This document shows, one piece after another, positions 53,290 through 60,754 of a DNA stretch of 64,000 bases. The position numbers were made by a program, and so were the translations under genes. The notes beneath the pieces are model-generated. The model was given only the letters and a program-made list of their open reading frames with translations. It made no database searches and had not been told where the DNA came from. How positions within the stretch are numbered: position 1 is the stretch's first letter; every line of letters begins with the position of its first letter. Origin of the DNA: Clostridia bacterium (GTDB taxonomy: Bacteria > Bacillota > Clostridia > SK-Y3); contig CAXXDC010000002.1 of the NCBI GenBank assembly GCA_963662695.2, forward strand, positions 650,022-714,021, written 5' to 3'.

Positions 53290-53404
53290 TTGGGCAACGC
53301 CCAATATTTAGGGGATTGGGGGTTCTCCCCAACAAGCAATTTGTCATACAAATTGGAAGCTTGCCCGCAGGAAGGCAGAGCCTTCCTAGGACTGCGGTTT
53401 TTTT
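53290..53404. promoter_or_regulatory. Candidate oriT: four consecutive hairpins upstream of mobC
   Basis: TTGGGC-AAC-GCCCAA (53290-53304), TTGGGG-GTTCT-CCCCAA (53316-53332), CAATTTG-TCATA-CAAATTG (53337-53355) and the nested CCGCAG/GGAAGG...CCTTCC/CTGCGG hairpin plus T7 (53365-53404). Confidence 0.45.
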
Positions 53405-53424: not shown

Positions 53425-55470
53425 CTACGAAATAATTGTACTGAGTTGTTTTTCTAAATCACTAGTAAGTATTATCTTTCCACAACTACTCATAGATTTA
53501 ATGAAAACTTCATGCTCATCTTCTAAAGGGTATATTGGTATTTTAATAGGAATCCATTGTAAATCTTTTTCTCCTGCAGCTATATCAATAGGTATGTGGC
53601 AATATCTGTGTGTTATAACTATCTCTTTTTCTTTTAAAACTAATTCAATCCATTCTTTAACATAGTCGGTTATTCCATATATCGATTCTCTACAAGCAGG
53701 TGTTTCAAAGAATTTCGACTTACTTCTATCTAAATTGAAACTAATACCTTCTGAATTCCCAGCTACATCTATATTAATATTATTAACCCAAAAGTTAATA
53801 TCCTCACTTCTATATTTTTTAAATTGAGTTAATTGATTAATTATAAGATGAGGCTTTTCATTTTCATCTGGCATAGTGAAAAAATCAGGTTGTAAAGAAA
53901 GAATTCCACCTGTCATTAAAAATTCTGCATCTTTCTTCATTGCTAATCTATATTTCACATCTGTCAACTCAGCATGAAAAACAATCAACTTTTCTACTTC
54001 TAATAGGAAGTCCGTTATTTTAAACGAATCAATTAATACTCCTTTATCATATATGCTAATTGTATTTGTAGTTTTATCTATTACTCTTCCGGGATGTGCA
54101 ATCGCATTTCTAATTTTTACATTATAGGCGTCGTTTATCATATCATGCAAATCTGTTTTTTTAGTATATCTCAAAGTCTTGCTAACTAAATTAGCTCCAT
54201 ATAGATCCGGTGTTATACACTCATCAATTATTGGTGCATTTTTTACTACTTTAGCTAAATTCGAAACAAACCAGTGATCTCCTATTAGATCAAAAGTATC
54301 TTTATACAAATTTATAATTGCATTAAAATCAGAATCATCAATTTCACTAACATCAAAAAAATCATCTGATTCTACAGAAGTAACTGGATTAGGATAATAA
54401 AAATCTTGAACCTGGGATTTTTTCTTGTTGAATATATTGTCATAAACAATTCCAATATCAGTTGTAGTTTGTAAGCTTTGTATTGTAGAAAAATTTTCAT
54501 CATATTCCAAAAACTCTTTAAATCGCACTTGATTACTCTCAGCAACAGAGATCACCTTTTCAAGATTTTCCATAATACTATAGTTTGCTTTTTGAAACCT
54601 CTCTTTATAAATACTACTTAAATATTCATAGAAAACACCTATTTCCAATTGATGATCTAGCTTAGAGCACTTTAATAGTTTTTCAATCATAGAATCAGGT
54701 GGAGTTTTTCCTTTATGCATATATTCATTAAAAAAGACTTTAAATTCAGTAAAAAGATCTATTAAAAGCGTATTCGAAAACGGGACATCTATAAGATTAT
54801 TATATTTAGATTTAGAACAAATTCTACAGTGCTTATCACTACAAAGTCTATTCGCAATTTCAAAAACATGATAGATTTCAATTTTCCCACACATTTCACA
54901 TTCAATAATTGCAAAATGCTTCTCACCATCACAAGCAAATTGTAAACTTACTTCTTGAGTTAAGTAACTAAATATATTTGTGTGTATATAAGGTTTAAGA
55001 CCCTCAGCAATTCTTCCCCTCAATCCTTCATTGATTTGCAAATATGACTTATTGTCTCCCTTAAATAAGATATGTCCTCTTGTCCAATTATTACTCTTGC
55101 TCTTACTAATATTTATTACACGGATTACTTTCACTAAACCTTCTTTTGTAATCGGATTAAGAATTTCTACAATTTCACCGCTAATTGTTACATCACGTAG
55201 AAATGGAGTTTGAAATATAATTACAGACTCCCTCTTATCTTCTAATTTTTTGAGGAAAATATTCAACCTCTCTTGACCAATAAATTGAGCAACCTGACTT
55301 TGCTCTATTTCAACTAATATTTCTTCGCTCTCACTATTATTTGGCAATACGAAATACATCGGGCTACTATAATATAATATCGATATATTAGTGTTCTGCA
55401 ACTCTATTTTCTGACCAACATTAGAGTGTTTTAAAACATACATTAAAAAATCATTTTCATCAAGGCTCAT
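53425..55470 (-). CDS. Large uncharacterised protein with a Cys4 zinc-ribbon and an RNxxxH (HEPN/Abi_C-like) motif
   Basis: CEMCGK...CSDKHCRICSK (residues about 198-225 of the track ORF) and KIRNAIAHPG (R461-H466; nt 54094-54111). The likely start is the ATG at 55470 after GGAAGGAG. The track ORF starts at 55491. Confidence 0.45.
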   Translation of the reverse strand: MSLDENDFLMYVLKHSNVGQKIELQNTNISILYYSSPMYFVLPNNSESEEILVEIEQSQVAQFIGQERLNIFLKKLEDKRESVIIFQTPFLRDVTISGEIVEILNPITKEGLVKVIRVINISKSKSNNWTRGHILFKGDNKSYLQINEGLRGRIAEGLKPYIHTNIFSYLTQEVSLQFACDGEKHFAIIECEMCGKIEIYHVFEIANRLCSDKHCRICSKSKYNNLIDVPFSNTLLIDLFTEFKVFFNEYMHKGKTPPDSMIEKLLKCSKLDHQLEIGVFYEYLSSIYKERFQKANYSIMENLEKVISVAESNQVRFKEFLEYDENFSTIQSLQTTTDIGIVYDNIFNKKKSQVQDFYYPNPVTSVESDDFFDVSEIDDSDFNAIINLYKDTFDLIGDHWFVSNLAKVVKNAPIIDECITPDLYGANLVSKTLRYTKKTDLHDMINDAYNVKIRNAIAHPGRVIDKTTNTISIYDKGVLIDSFKITDFLLEVEKLIVFHAELTDVKYRLAMKKDAEFLMTGGILSLQPDFFTMPDENEKPHLIINQLTQFKKYRSEDINFWVNNINIDVAGNSEGISFNLDRSKSKFFETPACRESIYGITDYVKEWIELVLKEKEIVITHRYCHIPIDIAAGEKDLQWIPIKIPIYPLEDEHEVFIKSMSSCGKIILTSDLEKQLSTIIS

Positions 55471-55606
55471 ATTTACAACTCCTTCCCCCATTTAGTTCAA
55501 TATCTTCAGATTACCCGAAAACATCTTTACCTTTAGTAAAATTTCACTTATTTCTTATAACACTATATACCACTTTATTCATAATTCAATATCTTGCAAT
55601 TTTCAA

Positions 55607-55617
55607 ATTATACCACA
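55607..55617 (-). promoter_or_regulatory. Extended -10 promoter element TGTGGTATAAT
   Basis: Minus-strand ACATGTGGTATAATTT in the 145-nt gap upstream of the gene at 55470. The same ATGTGGTATAAT string occurs at 59627-59637. Confidence 0.5.
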
Positions 55618-55636
55618 TGTAATTGGAACAACTTCA

Positions 55637-56485
55637 TCATAATGCATTAACCAGTTTTTCTGGATTAATATCATAATCACTTTCCTTCATTTCCTTAGCT
55701 AAGTCTCTTTTCCAAGCTCCATTTGAATCAATATTTATGTACACTACTCCAGATATATCATTAGGTTTTTCAACCTCTCCCTTGACCAAAGCACAAACAT
55801 TTCTCCGACCAATTTTTCCAATTAAATAACCGTGCTCAAAAATAACATTTTGTCTAGCTCTATCTTTTAACTCTGATTCTCTCTTCGCTTTACCTTCATC
55901 ACAAGGTGTATACAATACTACTGCAAAACCAACATTTGAGTTTTCTTCAATCTTCTCAATTATGGTCTGACCTTTACTTGCTTGTTCATGCAAGATGATA
56001 GCTTCAAAACCTAGTTTTTCTATAAATCTAGCGGTTTCCTGCTTAGCCTCATTATCGTGACCATGCACAATAAAAACTTTTGTTTTGTCCATTATACGTC
56101 CCCCTTCAATTCTTACAATCTCATCTTTTTCAATTACATATAAATTATTATCGCAAAGTACTGCTTTATCGTTTTTTATAACCTTAATTGCTAAAATATT
56201 CTTTCCTTCAATACTTATAAAACCATAATCTATTTCAGGCTTTATTGAAATCATTCCTAAAGCTCTATTTATTAAGCCATTTATATTAAATGTTGTACTT
56301 ATGTTCATCAGGTGATACTGCATATCTTCTTTAATTGCTCCAATAAGAATATGTCCATTCATAGTATTTGACATAGCAGCAATATATAACGCTAATCTAC
56401 TTGGTTTAAGTTCAAAACCAATACAGAATAAATTAGGATGACTATAATCTTTTAGCATTTCTCTTATTTCTTTTGAATTAATCAT
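55637..56485 (-). CDS. Fusion of an AlbA_2/Schlafen-like N-domain with a C-terminal TIR-like domain (Cap12/PycTIR-type, PF10137-like)
   Basis: C-terminus KVFIVHGHDNEAKQETARFIEKLGFEAIILHEQASKGQTIIEKIEENSNVGFAVVLYTPCDEG...RARQNVIFEHGYLIGKIGRRNVCALVKGEVEKPNDISGVVYI is the hallmark pattern of the prokaryotic TIR-like 'nucleotide-binding' domain. The AlbA_2-like call for the N-terminal approximately 130 aa is weaker. Confidence 0.7.
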   Translation of the reverse strand: MINSKEIREMLKDYSHPNLFCIGFELKPSRLALYIAAMSNTMNGHILIGAIKEDMQYHLMNISTTFNINGLINRALGMISIKPEIDYGFISIEGKNILAIKVIKNDKAVLCDNNLYVIEKDEIVRIEGGRIMDKTKVFIVHGHDNEAKQETARFIEKLGFEAIILHEQASKGQTIIEKIEENSNVGFAVVLYTPCDEGKAKRESELKDRARQNVIFEHGYLIGKIGRRNVCALVKGEVEKPNDISGVVYINIDSNGAWKRDLAKEMKESDYDINPEKLVNAL

Positions 56486-56493
56486 TTAGCCAC

Positions 56494-59400
56494 CTACCTT
56501 ATTCTTCTTAGAGGAATTCTGTTTATGCCCGTTAATTTAAGCATCTTACCAAAGGTTATCTTCTGGGGCGGATTATCATCATCTTCAACCCAAAGCTCCC
56601 AATCCTTTTCATAGTCCATAATATCCTTCTCCGATCCGTAATATAAAATAACTTGATTATAATCAGATGGACGGATAATTAAGTAAGTTTCTTCTCCATT
56701 CTTTTTGATTAGATATATCGTTTCATCAATCTTGAGAGCATCAACAAGATCATAACCTTGTTTTTTCTCTAGATGTTTAAATATCCTCTCTTTGGATCTC
56801 TTCAATATTGACATTACATATTCAAATTTAATGGAATCTTGTTCTGAAGAATGAATAAAATTTTCTGAAAAAAAGCTTGTACCCATTGCTTTTTGTAAAT
56901 CTTCATCAGTATAAATACCTGATTGTATCAATAATTCATCTGTTATTTCGGATTTATTTTGATTGTGATAACTTTCATTATGACCGCTTTGTAAAATCCG
57001 TTCTAAATCATCTTGATTTTCAATATTATATTTTTTCATAAGTTCATCATATGCTTCAGCTTTTTTCATGTTTATTGATATTTCTTCATCATCGTAAAGC
57101 CAATGAATATGTTTATAAATCTCTGGGAATATTTCCTTTGCTTTGTATGCGTTTTCGTCTATCCATTTATAGAGTCGTTTAAAAATCGTCTTTACTTCGC
57201 TATCTTTGTTTACTTTATTATTAATATTATTTTTCACATATGAACTGATTGGTGTTGCTAAATCTTTTGCATGTTTTTCTCTATTATCAGGTAAATTTAA
57301 TCTAATGGCTTTTTCAAGAAGTTCTTGCCTTATATCACGCCCAACATCCAAAGCTATATCTTTTAACGCTTTATCAATATCATCATCGAGAAACAAATCG
57401 TCTTTTATCACAAATTCACCATTTTGATTAGGAAGAATTGGGCAAGTAGTCTTATTCAATAAATTTTCCATATCATAAGTCACCAAAAAATCTACAAAGC
57501 TATCTAGCCATCCTAGCGCCTCATTTTTATCATTAAAGGTTAAGCTCGTAGCAAAATTCTTAAGATTTTCTGTTTCATTTATCTTACCTGCAATACATTT
57601 TGCTATATAGTTAATTGATTTTTGCAAAAGCTCATCTGAAATCGTATTTACACTCTTAATTGTAGTATATTTGTTGTCAAAAACTCTATTGGCTAATTCT
57701 ATAATTCTGATCTGTTTTTCATATGATTTGTTATCTTTATTCGTAAGCATTAATACTGCATCATATATTTCACCCTTTTGAATATCATCAGCTAACTTTA
57801 AGTTCTCTTCAATTTTTGCAATAATCGCTTCATTATTAATTAATCTCCACTCACTAATACCTTTAAATTCTATTGACTTATGAATCAAATAATCTTTGCA
57901 GTCATGCTCTAACAAGCTTAAAATCTCTTTATAATCATCTTCAATATTGTCATCTATGTAAAGATCCGAAATACTTTTCAGTTCTCTATTTTGATTTAAA
58001 ATGACTGCATATTTACCTCTGCATATATCGCTTATTAATTCACCCTCTAATTCGATTAAATCATAATATTCTTGCAACCATTGTATAGGTGATAACGATC
58101 CCTTTATATCATTAGCTAAATAGTTAAAGTTACCGACATCTTCAATTTCTTCTGTAAGCAACTCCAAGGTTAAGTTTCTACATTCTCCCCATAATGAACC
58201 ATACCAATTATGAATATCACTTTTAACTGGTATGCTGTGAGGAACCCATGAACTATATAGTGACCATATCTTATTTCTAATCTCTTCCTTGGGGTGGCTT
58301 GGCAATTTTATTAAAACCTCATCATTGAAATCTCTCAAAGCTACCCTCTCACCATCAACATTATCAACTAATGGAAGATACATTATTTGTTCTTTTGTTC
58401 TAGCTATAACATGCTCTTTTAACCACTTAGCACTAAACCAATCTTTCGATATAACTCTAGGGACTTTAGTAATATTATATAAGCCTTGCCAATCGTGAGA
58501 AGAATGCTCTAATATTTTATCATAGAGTGCACATCCCTCTTGCATTAATCGTTTGTTTTCAATCACTTTATCATCTTCACTATCAATCAACCATACTCCG
58601 TCCCTAGGTTCAGTTGGATTGAATTTAACACAATTCATTATGACGGGTATTGGAAATTCGTCTGTTCCAACTAAAGGAAAGTCACAAAATAGCTTGGGAA
58701 TCTTACTTGAATAAGGTTTGATTATAACTTTACCATTATCTTCATTAACAGGTACAGCTATTGAGATATTGGAGTCCTTCACTATTAGTATTTTGAATTC
58801 CTCTCTGAATCCATTTGATATCTGCTCAACATGATAAATATGAGAATTGCTTAATTGGCTTATCGTCCTATTTACCAATTTGTATTTAATGTTTTCATTT
58901 ACCAGTGTTATCTCTTCAATTTGAGGTGTAAATGCTAACACATAAGGAACTGAGCTTTTTAAATCTTCAAGTCCTATTTTCGCAACATTCATCCCCTTAT
59001 CATCCAGTTTATATGCGAATATAGTATTAAAATCTTCAGTATTATGTAATTGTTCATCAACGTTTATCTGATATTTCTCTAATTCATCATATGACTTCTT
59101 TATTGCATCAATAATTTCAGTTTTGTTCTTCCCTGATCTATCTAAAGTAATTTGAAACGCTTTCAAAATCAAGTCGTCATCTATAAGTTTTCCTCTAACC
59201 TGAACAATCTCAGATAATAGATGGGTCGTTAAAAATCCTGTACCAAACTTTCCAGTAGTATCGCTTTTCTCATCTCTATCTTTTGTAGAAACTTGCTCAA
59301 TCAAGAAAACAATGTTCTTTATCGAAAAAGGCTTCCCATTATGTCTAAACTCAAGTATCTTATCTTGCTCATTTAAGTATATTTCCACCTTTACCTTTCC

Positions 59401-59568
59401 ACTTCCATTTCGGACATCTTTAGCATTCTGTAAAAGTTCCCACACCCATCTTCTTTCACTATTTGTATTAGCATTAAGTCTAAGTTTATCTAACATATCC
59501 ATGATTCTATTGGCTACATTCGTATCATGTGCATTTTTTCTTTCTTCTTCTACTTTTGCTAGTAACAT
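56494..59568 (-). CDS. 1024-aa protein with N-terminal GHKL (HSP90/sacsin/MORC-like) ATPase fold
   Basis: Bergerat N-box WELLQNAKD (E44/N48/D51), RHNGKPF and the glycine lid GKFGTGF (residues 106-112). I could not assign the remaining approximately 850 aa. Confidence 0.6.
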   Translation of the reverse strand: MLLAKVEEERKNAHDTNVANRIMDMLDKLRLNANTNSERRWVWELLQNAKDVRNGSGKVKVEIYLNEQDKILEFRHNGKPFSIKNIVFLIEQVSTKDRDEKSDTTGKFGTGFLTTHLLSEIVQVRGKLIDDDLILKAFQITLDRSGKNKTEIIDAIKKSYDELEKYQINVDEQLHNTEDFNTIFAYKLDDKGMNVAKIGLEDLKSSVPYVLAFTPQIEEITLVNENIKYKLVNRTISQLSNSHIYHVEQISNGFREEFKILIVKDSNISIAVPVNEDNGKVIIKPYSSKIPKLFCDFPLVGTDEFPIPVIMNCVKFNPTEPRDGVWLIDSEDDKVIENKRLMQEGCALYDKILEHSSHDWQGLYNITKVPRVISKDWFSAKWLKEHVIARTKEQIMYLPLVDNVDGERVALRDFNDEVLIKLPSHPKEEIRNKIWSLYSSWVPHSIPVKSDIHNWYGSLWGECRNLTLELLTEEIEDVGNFNYLANDIKGSLSPIQWLQEYYDLIELEGELISDICRGKYAVILNQNRELKSISDLYIDDNIEDDYKEILSLLEHDCKDYLIHKSIEFKGISEWRLINNEAIIAKIEENLKLADDIQKGEIYDAVLMLTNKDNKSYEKQIRIIELANRVFDNKYTTIKSVNTISDELLQKSINYIAKCIAGKINETENLKNFATSLTFNDKNEALGWLDSFVDFLVTYDMENLLNKTTCPILPNQNGEFVIKDDLFLDDDIDKALKDIALDVGRDIRQELLEKAIRLNLPDNREKHAKDLATPISSYVKNNINNKVNKDSEVKTIFKRLYKWIDENAYKAKEIFPEIYKHIHWLYDDEEISINMKKAEAYDELMKKYNIENQDDLERILQSGHNESYHNQNKSEITDELLIQSGIYTDEDLQKAMGTSFFSENFIHSSEQDSIKFEYVMSILKRSKERIFKHLEKKQGYDLVDALKIDETIYLIKKNGEETYLIIRPSDYNQVILYYGSEKDIMDYEKDWELWVEDDDNPPQKITFGKMLKLTGINRIPLRRIR

Positions 59569-59626
59569 TTATTCCACCTCAGCATATAAAAATCAATGTG
59601 TATTTTAATAGTTCTCCACTAGGAAT

Positions 59627-59637
59627 ATTATACCACA
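59627..59637 (-). promoter_or_regulatory. Extended -10 promoter element TGTGGTATAAT upstream of the GHKL gene
   Basis: Minus-strand GAATGTGGTATAATATT, about 55 nt upstream of the ATG at 59568. Confidence 0.5.
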
Positions 59638-59710
59638 TTCTTGTTTGATTTTGTTTCAAAAATTGATGTAATAGTTGAAATTACTTACTCTAGCAAGTAG
59701 CAGAAGAAAA

Positions 59711-59760
59711 CTAAAAAACACTATAATTTATCACAACCATAAAGTTAATAAATTATAGTG
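59711..59760 (-). terminator. Strong intrinsic terminator insulating the leading-region genes from the GHKL island
   Basis: Perfect 13-bp stem CACTATAATTTAT / ATAAATTATAGTG with a 16-nt loop, followed on the minus strand by TTTTTTAG. Confidence 0.7.
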
Positions 59761-59926: not shown

Positions 59927-60754
59927 TTACATTTCCATGTCTTCCTCTTGCCCTTGAACATATTCTTCTGAAGGGTATTGTTGTTTCATTGCTTCATAGT
60001 GTTGTTTGTATATCTCTGCGTTCAAACGTTCTGGTGTTTGTGATTTTTCAGTTGTACTAACTTCACTAGATTCTTTATCAACACCTTTTTCATCAGGCTG
60101 ACTATGTTCCTTTTCATTAGCTATTTTTTTAAATAGATTTTTTTTTAATGATTCAATATTTTTTCTTGAAATCTCAACTTTCCCTTCTTCATAAACCTTT
60201 CTAATACCCTCAATTTCTTTAGCTCCTCTAACCCTTCCGTTTTCTTGTTTAATGCATTTATTGAGTAAATCTATTGGTAATTCATTTTCCAGACCAATAC
60301 GTACCTCCCTCATTTGCTGAGGTGTGAGATACGACTGATTAATCAAGAACTCCACTTGCTTCTTATTTAAGCCACATTCGAAACCTTTTCGTATCTCCTG
60401 CATCTGTTCAGGTAAGAGCGTTGGCTTGGCATACATTTCCACTTGAGCATTGCTAAGATTCCCTTCAAGCCCAAGGCGGACATCCTTCATTTGATTATAG
60501 GTAAGAGTTGGTTTATTCGCATATAGGGCTACCTGTAATTTACTTAATCCATTTTCCATACCCATTCTAATCTCTCTCATTTGTTTATCATTTAATATAT
60601 CATGGGCATACATCTTTATTTGTGATACTGCTAGACCTGCTCTTAAACCTTCCATCACTTCATTAAATTGCATTCTATTTAGATCATCACATTCTAGTTG
60701 TTTTAAGCTCTGACGGTATTTTATTTTCTCAAAGAAATCTCTAATTACTCCCAT
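59927..60754 (-). CDS. Protein with five tandem approximately 32-36 aa repeats (QM+E[IV]R.G.E.GL...Q[VI]..YA)
   Basis: Repeats are seen directly: QFNEVMEGLRAGLAVSQIKMYA / QMREIRMGMENGLSKLQVALYA / QMKDVRLGLEGNLSNAQVEMYA / QMQEIRKGFECGLNKKQVEFL / QMREVRIGLENELPIDLL. The C-terminus is acidic and low-complexity. Confidence 0.5.
   Translation of the reverse strand: MGVIRDFFEKIKYRQSLKQLECDDLNRMQFNEVMEGLRAGLAVSQIKMYAHDILNDKQMREIRMGMENGLSKLQVALYANKPTLTYNQMKDVRLGLEGNLSNAQVEMYAKPTLLPEQMQEIRKGFECGLNKKQVEFLINQSYLTPQQMREVRIGLENELPIDLLNKCIKQENGRVRGAKEIEGIRKVYEEGKVEISRKNIESLKKNLFKKIANEKEHSQPDEKGVDKESSEVSTTEKSQTPERLNAEIYKQHYEAMKQQYPSEEYVQGQEEDMEM

Follow-up and report, generated by a model that had tools for sequence, protein, structure and literature searches.

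A candidate two-gene Tiamat-family pair with its effector in trans, and an unrelated rare gene, as probable defence cargo of a clostridial conjugative element

This report concerns a block of three genes in a 64,000-nucleotide (nt) stretch of DNA from a Clostridia bacterium (GTDB lineage SK-Y3; contig CAXXDC010000002.1, positions 650,022 to 714,021), termed here the window and numbered from its first letter. We propose, with a probability of about 0.62, that the block at 53,425 to 59,760 consists of two independent defence-type cargo units: a two-gene pair of the Tiamat (TmtA) family whose effector is supplied in trans, and an unrelated, rare third gene. The first unit (about 59637 to 55637, minus strand) would be a two-gene operon formed by genes 1 and 2, and the second (about 55617 to 53425) would be gene 3 with transcription of its own. 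The initial annotation of this DNA, made from the letters alone, had described one three-gene system and stated that it could not be mapped to a named system; the latter statement is superseded by the profile matches of gene 1 to PADLOC TmtA (4e-147) and of the TIR half of gene 2 to the PADLOC candidate PDC-S35, and the former is taken up with gene 3 below. The three co-oriented open reading frames (ORFs) themselves, and the 8-nt gap between the first two, are present as it reported them:

56494-59568, minus strand: gene 1, ORF of 1024 amino acids (aa)
55637-56485, minus strand: gene 2, ORF of 282 aa
53425-55491, minus strand: gene 3, 688 aa as the full ORF
53425-55470, minus strand: probable coding extent of gene 3, 681 aa from ATG 55470 (Met8)

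The gap between genes 1 and 2 lies at 56486-56493, and a GGTGG-type ribosome-binding site overlaps the stop codon of gene 1.

Gene 1 is predicted to encode a short Tiamat-family (TmtA-like) GHKL ATPase of the sacsin/Hsp90 type, a member of this family at the profile level. Its ATP-binding motifs, WELLQNAKD at residues 43-51 and GKFGTGF at residues 106-112, had been recognized in the initial annotation, whose domain and motif calls for all three genes (the GHKL motifs, a Cap12-type TIR domain in gene 2 and an RNAIAH motif in gene 3) proved correct. The PADLOC TmtA model PDLC03967 matches the protein at 4.1e-147 (490 bits) and covers residues 5-643; the remaining PADLOC TmtA models match it merely over the first ~100-240 residues. 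NCBIfam model NF047352, which represents the sacsin N-terminal ATP-binding domain, scores over its cut-off (4e-20), Pfam HATPase_c is found under the Pfam cut-off (2.8e-4), and a profile of the gene 1 family matches the HtpG/Hsp90 N-domains in PDB. Among 21 homologues of 39-54% identity, the residues E44, N48, D51, G78 and G106-G111 are invariant. The GHKL ATPase is followed by a helical region and then by a small C-terminal alpha/beta domain. The AlphaFold2 (AF2) model of residues 640-1024 has a predicted local distance difference test score (pLDDT) of 80.5, and a Foldseek search with this model returned no significant fold match. An invariant P-N-Q-N-G-x-F...D element is repeated internally at residues ~521-540 and ~710-730, and the C-terminal model predicts it as a small beta-meander.

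The sole TmtA marked as verified for anti-phage activity is a single gene of 1590 aa from B. cereus FORC_005, annotated as 'Hsp90, DUF3684, DUF3883' (Millman et al. 2022 supplement, bioRxiv 10.1101/2022.05.11.491447), and DUF3883 has been described as a restriction-endonuclease domain (PMC3710099). When gene 1 is compared with the available first 399 residues of this protein, the alignment is limited to 89 aa of the ATP-binding motif, at 31% identity. In gene 1 and 20 homologues, Pfam profiles matched solely as HATPase_c and HATPase_c_3, and neither DUF3684 nor DUF3883 was detected. Gene 1 appears to depart from the verified Tiamat in two features, since no cis nuclease domain is detected in it and since it does not stand as a single-gene system, and the simplest reading would therefore be that the effector now resides in the partner gene. 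No paper on the mechanism of Tiamat was found in the searchable literature.

The partner, gene 2, carries a TIR domain of Pfam family PF10137 (CAP12-PCTIR_TIR; 1.4e-41 at residues 136-253), in which Glu217, within the string VIFEHG, aligns with the VFEFG-motif glutamate of the Cap12 structures 9lmq and 7un8. TIR domains of the Cap12 type, including that of Cap12 TIR-STING, require oligomerisation for activity. The Cap12 equivalog scores of NCBIfam are far under their cut-off (35 vs 450 bits). Residues 126-278 match positions 125-277 of the PDC-S35 profile at 2.6e-86; the N-terminal half of that profile has no match in gene 2, where a different N-domain is found, and no paper on PDC-S35 was found in the searchable literature. 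The Pfam scan detected no GHKL domain in gene 2.

That N-domain matches Pfam PF04326 (SLFN_AlbA_2) at 3e-6 over residues 30-112. A profile made from the N-domains of 43 partners finds mammalian Schlafen structures, in their C-lobe, with SLFN13 at 2.8e-7 and SLFN5, SLFN14 and SLFN12 besides. When this profile is aligned with SLFN structures from rat and human, I51/K52 of gene 2 stand at the catalytic GV-D-D positions of Schlafen. Of 64 partners, 40 have K at position 52; across the same 64 sequences the conserved positions are G44, G49 and I100 only, with no conserved acidic column. Because the catalytic Asp positions are occupied by I51/K52 and no acidic column is conserved, we infer that the N-domain (residues ~1-125) is a degenerate Schlafen/AlbA_2-like domain that has lost its catalytic Asp, and that it has a non-catalytic role as an adaptor or oligomerisation module. 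It could instead be an active tRNase, which would make gene 2 a dual RNase/NADase effector comparable to the bacterial Schlafen defence proteins. Bacterial Schlafen nucleases are indeed antiviral tRNases (PMC13056530), and E25 is retained in gene 2, which also has E53/D54 close to the catalytic position; with the aligned catalytic positions substituted and acidic conservation missing across the 64 partners, we regard an active tRNase as unlikely.

The coupling of the two genes was followed in other genomes. An alignment search with gene 1, using one genome per species, gave 442 relatives, of which the best 80 loci were kept, and the ORFs downstream of TmtA were scored with a hidden Markov model (HMM) of the partner N-domain, built from 43 partners. 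A downstream ORF was readable in 70 of these 80 TmtA loci, and it carried the partner N-domain in 65 of the 70. The initial annotation had raised the question of which neighbours of the 1024-aa protein are conserved: the gene 2-type partner is, and it has a TIR domain in two of the partner classes described below (B and C), and tblastn gave no match to gene 3 in the 80 loci. The pair-bearing loci belong to both Bacillota and Bacteroidota and have a TmtA-to-partner spacing of -23 to +37 nt, nearly all between -23 and +16. Pfam SLFN_AlbA_2 is reached unaided by 52 of 64 partners, and tblastn queried with gene 2 residues 1-130 matched 47 loci, as compared with 8 for the TIR half. A large protein search with the partner N-domain profile yielded four short fragments and adds nothing to this picture. 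The closest relative, a Joint Genome Institute (JGI) metagenome locus of 87% identity (L085), has the same pair. On the IMG/VR viral contig L089 (L089:5941-10516), a 1024-aa TmtA is followed 4 nt on by a 498-aa ORF, equal in length to the TIR_2+GAF partners and taken as a partner by length and position; if this pair is confirmed, the pair would also be carried on phage or prophage DNA.

The five loci lacking the partner N-domain comprise four cyanobacterial proteins (~30% identity) and one Spirosoma locus. In the latter (L076:11195-12001), an IS4/5 transposase stands directly after TmtA, in the partner position. Cyanobacterial TmtA-like proteins of ~30% identity and similar length (L075, L077, L080, L082-L084) have no Schlafen-type partner downstream, and they may be autonomous or have another partner. 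In Cohnella sp. WGS1546 (L048:11072-11428) the partner ORF has merely 118 aa and may be truncated.

Gabija GajA and Type I restriction-modification genes (with as many as 7 methyltransferase matches) are among the genes flanking the pair in 17 loci, which is a defence-island context. This bears on a further explanation, in which the pair would mainly be an addiction, exclusion or anti-plasmid module serving the conjugative element rather than an anti-phage system. TIR NADases are toxic, and in the window the pair sits between the leading region and the module of oriT (origin of transfer) and mobilisation genes of a conjugative element. Homologous pairs are not specific to conjugative elements, though, since they reside in chromosomal islands with Type I restriction-modification and Gabija and a candidate pair lies on the viral contig, and the family entered PADLOC and DefenseFinder through defence-island enrichment. 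We hold this explanation to be improbable as the main function, and it is in any case compatible with a role in defence.

While the N-domain of the partner is constant, its C-terminus falls into five unrelated classes:

Class A, 31 loci: unassigned ~300-aa C-terminal domain, faintly LmuA-like
Class B, 17 loci: TIR_2, plus GAF in 3
Class C, 9 loci, the window included: Cap12-type TIR
Class D, 5 loci (four Bacteroidota, one Bacillota): C-terminus of no known family
Class E, 3 loci: SF1 helicase, MkoA-like

Distances between TmtA proteins and distances between their partner N-domains, taken pair by pair, are correlated at r = 0.89 overall, a value inflated by shared phylogeny, and at r = 0.51 between effector classes. 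More than one TmtA cluster contains class B, and the same holds for class C; this and the distance correlation therefore indicate co-divergence with occasional exchange of the effector. Genes 1 and 2 might nonetheless be two autonomous single-gene systems, the one a Tiamat and the other a PDC-S35-like TIR protein, which are merely neighbours in a defence island. Both are modelled in PADLOC as single-gene entries and the clustering of defence genes is common, yet mere neighbours would hardly keep their adjacency in 65 of 70 loci across two phyla, co-diverge, or hold one N-domain constant while the C-terminal effector varies. In addition, the PDC-S35 profile covers the TIR half alone and not the N-domain, and the DUF3883 of the verified protein occurs in no scanned member of the gene 1 TmtA subfamily. 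Two autonomous genes are accordingly a quite improbable account.

Genes 1 and 2 thus appear to form a pair that is conserved, co-diverges and can have its effector swapped, a feature that goes beyond the initial annotation and an architecture that the verified Tiamat does not have. The conserved operon, the intact ATP motifs of gene 1, the intact TIR glutamate, the degenerate Schlafen site and the variable effector domain are all read directly from the sequences, and around them we infer the following course of events. The ATPase of gene 1 would sense an infection cue, and an ATP-dependent GHKL dimerisation or conformational change would be relayed to gene 2 via the dead Schlafen domain, acting as the adaptor or oligomerisation module. 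The TIR domains would thereby be brought together and hydrolysis of nicotinamide adenine dinucleotide (NAD+) switched on, so that infection would be aborted and the infected cell arrested. In other genomes, the same sensor-adaptor chassis would work with TIR_2, the ~300-aa faintly LmuA-like domain, an SF1 helicase or a domain of no known family.

Several points weigh against this reading, besides the phylogenetic inflation of the overall correlation. The last ~90 residues of gene 1, which make up its small alpha/beta domain, weakly resemble the folds of tRNA-splicing endonuclease and XisH (E 0.1-2), and because of this similarity a cis nuclease may be present after all, although we did not take matches this weak as evidence of one. 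The retained E25 and E53/D54 could likewise allow gene 2 some residual Schlafen activity. The subfamily is known from sequences, with the lone verified Tiamat being a distant relative, and a physical interaction of the two proteins is suggested by synteny and co-divergence. The nearest TmtA neighbour has the same effector class in 59 of 63 cases, for which reason swapping would be ancient rather than frequent. For class A, the largest, a nuclease reading derives from weak matches (LmuA C-terminus at 6.6e-8 in one member; DUF6602 at 0.06), and a Cap4-like nuclease is a guess. For the second unit, the defence role assigned to gene 3 is speculative and comes from its context.

Gene 3 appears to be a separately transcribed, very rare stand-alone gene unrelated to the pair. 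The first ATG of its ORF (55491) has no ribosome-binding site, while ATG 55470 has AAGGAG 8 nt upstream and is the sole start with a good site, so the protein is probably 681 aa long, in agreement with the ~681 aa first estimated. We keep the 688-aa numbering here, in which R461/H466 correspond to R454/H459 counted from Met8. The RNAIAH motif lies at 461-466 and a CxxC...CxxC motif at 198-225. Down to 21% identity, the cysteines C198, C201, C222 and C225 of this Zn ribbon are invariant, as are R461 and H466 of the Rx4H motif, with N462 nearly so, and Y396, K397, D401 and H406 are conserved. Its relatives are few: 14 in a set of 5.8 billion proteins, and 23 when 1.84 billion representatives were searched exhaustively by profile, which added few divergent members; a metagenome scan gave one further locus.

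There was no credible match for gene 3 in Pfam, PADLOC, NCBIfam or PHROG, and a PDB profile search gave zero matches at E <= 10. Its AF2 model has a pLDDT of 68 and places the RNAIAH motif on a helix, predicted at 458-465, that is part of a helical region. Foldseek against PDB and BFVD returned weak SSB/OB matches alone, at residues ~28-130, so that the architecture is best described as an OB-like N-domain, a Zn ribbon, a helical region with Rx4H and a C-terminal alpha/beta domain. HEPN was matched by neither Foldseek (PDB, BFVD; model pLDDT 68), the PDB profile search nor Pfam. A HEPN-type RNase would be a plausible reading, and the HEPN fold is putative. Most simply, though speculatively, gene 3 may be a candidate for abortive infection that works on its own as a single gene and targets nucleic acids (a HEPN-like RNase).

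The genomic contexts of gene 3 homologues include the following:

C. estertheticum: between serine recombinase fragments and a ScoMcrA-N/CN-hydrolase gene
JGI contig: beside GAAD/GASH/DO-GTPase and Type I restriction-modification genes
B. mobilis: beside an AAA_21 gene
A further homologue: beside ParAB and pilus/secretion genes
A further homologue: at a polysaccharide-cluster/prophage junction

That all three genes make up one sensor-plus-two-effector system, as first proposed, is highly improbable: they are adjacent, co-oriented, equipped with a common promoter string (TGTGGTATAAT) and enclosed by two hairpins, but tblastn of gene 3 found no match in the 80 TmtA genome loci, none of six homologue contexts showed a TmtA or TIR gene beside it, the closest relative of the pair (L085) has a different 615-aa gene in third position (L085:4204-6051), and gene 3 lies at least 145 nt from gene 2 with its own copy of the promoter string. 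The 615-aa gene contains an 'IIEVKSS' motif of PD-(D/E)XK-like type and ends in a SEC-C motif. The distant gene 3 relatives P0141, P0142 and P0148 likewise end in SEC-C motifs, and for this tail the 615-aa gene was considered as a divergent gene 3. It was rejected, as BLASTP found nothing and hhalign just a 59-column helical stretch, so that no homology of the proteins is detectable.

The regulatory signals and hairpins of the block are as follows:

59711-59760, minus strand: terminator-like hairpin, 13-bp perfect stem and 16-nt loop (inverted repeat and folding energy)
59627-59637, minus strand: TGTGGTATAAT, extended -10 promoter-like element for the gene 1-gene 2 operon (string match, function inferred)
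55607-55617, minus strand: TGTGGTATAAT, second copy, separate promoter-like element for gene 3 (string match)
53364-53397, no strand assigned: GC-rich hairpin, within the ~200 bp that separate gene 3 from nikA/mobC (-21.2 kcal/mol, z = -3.2)

The two copies of TGTGGTATAAT upstream of gene 1 and gene 3, described in the initial annotation, were confirmed: the window holds exactly two, both on the minus strand, where 0.16 are expected by chance, and 0 of 100 shuffles reached two copies. A generic sigma-70 scan found 41 promoter-like sites in the region vs 44 expected, which is no excess, so the exact duplicated extended -10 string is the only noteworthy promoter signal. The perfect 13-bp stem reported upstream of gene 1 was confirmed as well. 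The inverted-repeat arms (59719-59731/59748-59760; 13 bp, perfect and AT-rich) are real, fold at -16.9 kcal/mol (z = -5.8) and have U6 directly after, but the consensus terminator scan did not call the hairpin. We describe it as terminator-like, insulating the gene pair from the leading-region genes upstream. The arms of this repeat (59719-59760) hold a TATAAT-like sequence (CACTATAAT), because of which the hairpin could double as an operator or promoter-like site. The GC-rich hairpin reported beyond gene 3 is likewise real; it has A7 on its 5′ side and no U-tract 3′ of it on the minus strand, whereas on the plus strand T7 follows it, and it could be an oriT inverted repeat, or a plus-strand or bidirectional terminator, rather than the terminator of gene 3.

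Conjugation and mobilisation genes lie on both sides of the block, with a type IV coupling protein, a MobA/VirD2 relaxase and NikA/MobC downstream, and DUF3991-Toprim, RadC and a helicase C-terminus upstream. The contig is of chromosomal size (874 kb), and because of this and the flanking conjugation genes an integrated conjugative element is plausible, with the three genes as its accessory cargo. The earlier proposal of defence-type cargo inside a conjugative module is supported. Megablast of the locus against PLSDB plasmids gave no match. Just upstream, a 275-aa protein (59927-60754) consists of tandem ~37-aa repeats (…QMREIRMG.E.GL…) and has no Pfam match.

If the pair is what we propose, a large branch of the 'Tiamat' entries in databases would perhaps be a two-gene sensor with a swappable effector, which suggests a correction of annotation. 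Stated in its most general form, the proteins of ~1025 aa that PADLOC, and probably DefenseFinder, record as 'single-gene Tiamat' would be the sensor half of a widespread, undescribed two-component system with a dead-Schlafen adaptor and interchangeable effectors, a split and effector-delegating counterpart of the Schlatpase supradomain described below; separately, gene 3 would found a new, rare family of single-gene abortive-infection proteins with OB, Zn-ribbon and Rx4H elements. We advance this generalization tentatively, at slightly less than even odds. No description of a conserved Schlafen-adaptor/effector partner of short TmtA was found in the searchable literature, where absence is no proof of novelty. 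For Tiamat, the pair would offer a tractable entry point through a TIR NADase output and clear point mutants. It would also give the Schlafen-GHKL partnership of SLFN-pAgo a second form, split between two proteins, supporting GHKL ATPases as general oligomerisation switches for Schlafen-linked immune effectors, and would probably be an example of a Schlafen domain put to non-catalytic use as an adaptor. As a candidate new family, gene 3 is for the present too rare, and its model too poor, to be ranked high.

Comparison with known systems places the two units as follows. Gene 3 resembles the single-gene HEPN/Abi RNases (AbiD/F, AbiJ) in having an R-N-x-x-x-H motif in a helix, in standing alone and in its mobile-element and defence-island contexts, and differs from them by the lack of a HEPN profile or fold match, by its unique architecture and by the extreme rarity of its family. 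As for Thoeris, none of the three proteins has a PADLOC match to ThsA or ThsB. The initial annotation had already noted that neither ThsA nor a cyclase is present, and the Pfam, PADLOC and NCBIfam scans of the three genes agree, giving no match to a CD-NTase or pyrimidine cyclase; the flanking genes are conjugation genes. With the single-gene TIR candidate PDC-S35, gene 2 shares the C-terminal ~150 aa, and it differs in having another N-domain and a conserved upstream partner.

The TIR domain of gene 2 belongs to the same PF10137 subfamily as those of CBASS Cap12 (TIR-STING) and Pycsar PycTIR and keeps the catalytic Glu, so that its expected output would be NAD+ depletion and abortive infection after oligomerisation. 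Unlike these systems, the pair has no STING or cyclic-nucleotide-binding domain; its TIR shares one protein with a Schlafen/AlbA_2-like domain and has a GHKL ATPase as partner, and because of this composition and the missing cyclase, activation of gene 2 is presumably protein-mediated rather than signalled by a nucleotide. In keeping its chassis constant and exchanging the effector domain (TIR, helicase, unassigned domain), the pair is reminiscent of Lamassu, Avs and CBASS, and one class A partner has the weak match to the LmuA C-terminus; its core, however, is a GHKL ATPase and not an SMC, STAND or CD-NTase protein. Tiamat itself shares with gene 1 the N-terminal sacsin/Hsp90-type GHKL ATPase and the occurrence in defence islands. 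The verified protein, though, has 1590 aa with Hsp90, DUF3684 and DUF3883 and acts as a single gene, whereas the 1024-aa gene 1, with neither DUF detected, belongs to a subfamily almost always found with a tightly coupled partner gene.

A precedent for the proposed coupling is the Schlatpase supradomain (Schlafen AlbA_2 + GHKL). Of prokaryotic Schlafen proteins, 58.6% have a GHKL ATPase in cis, and in SLFN-pAgo the GHKL ATPase drives assembly of the Schlafen domain, with ATP binding leading to oligomerisation and then to effector activation (bioRxiv 10.64898/2026.05.29.728809). The gene 1-gene 2 pair likewise links a Schlafen/AlbA_2 domain with a GHKL ATPase, with a coupling that would be analogous. 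It differs in carrying the two domains on separate proteins, in a GHKL domain of the sacsin/Hsp90 type and not of PF13749, and in a Schlafen domain without the catalytic Asp, so that killing would be delegated to the swappable C-terminal domain.

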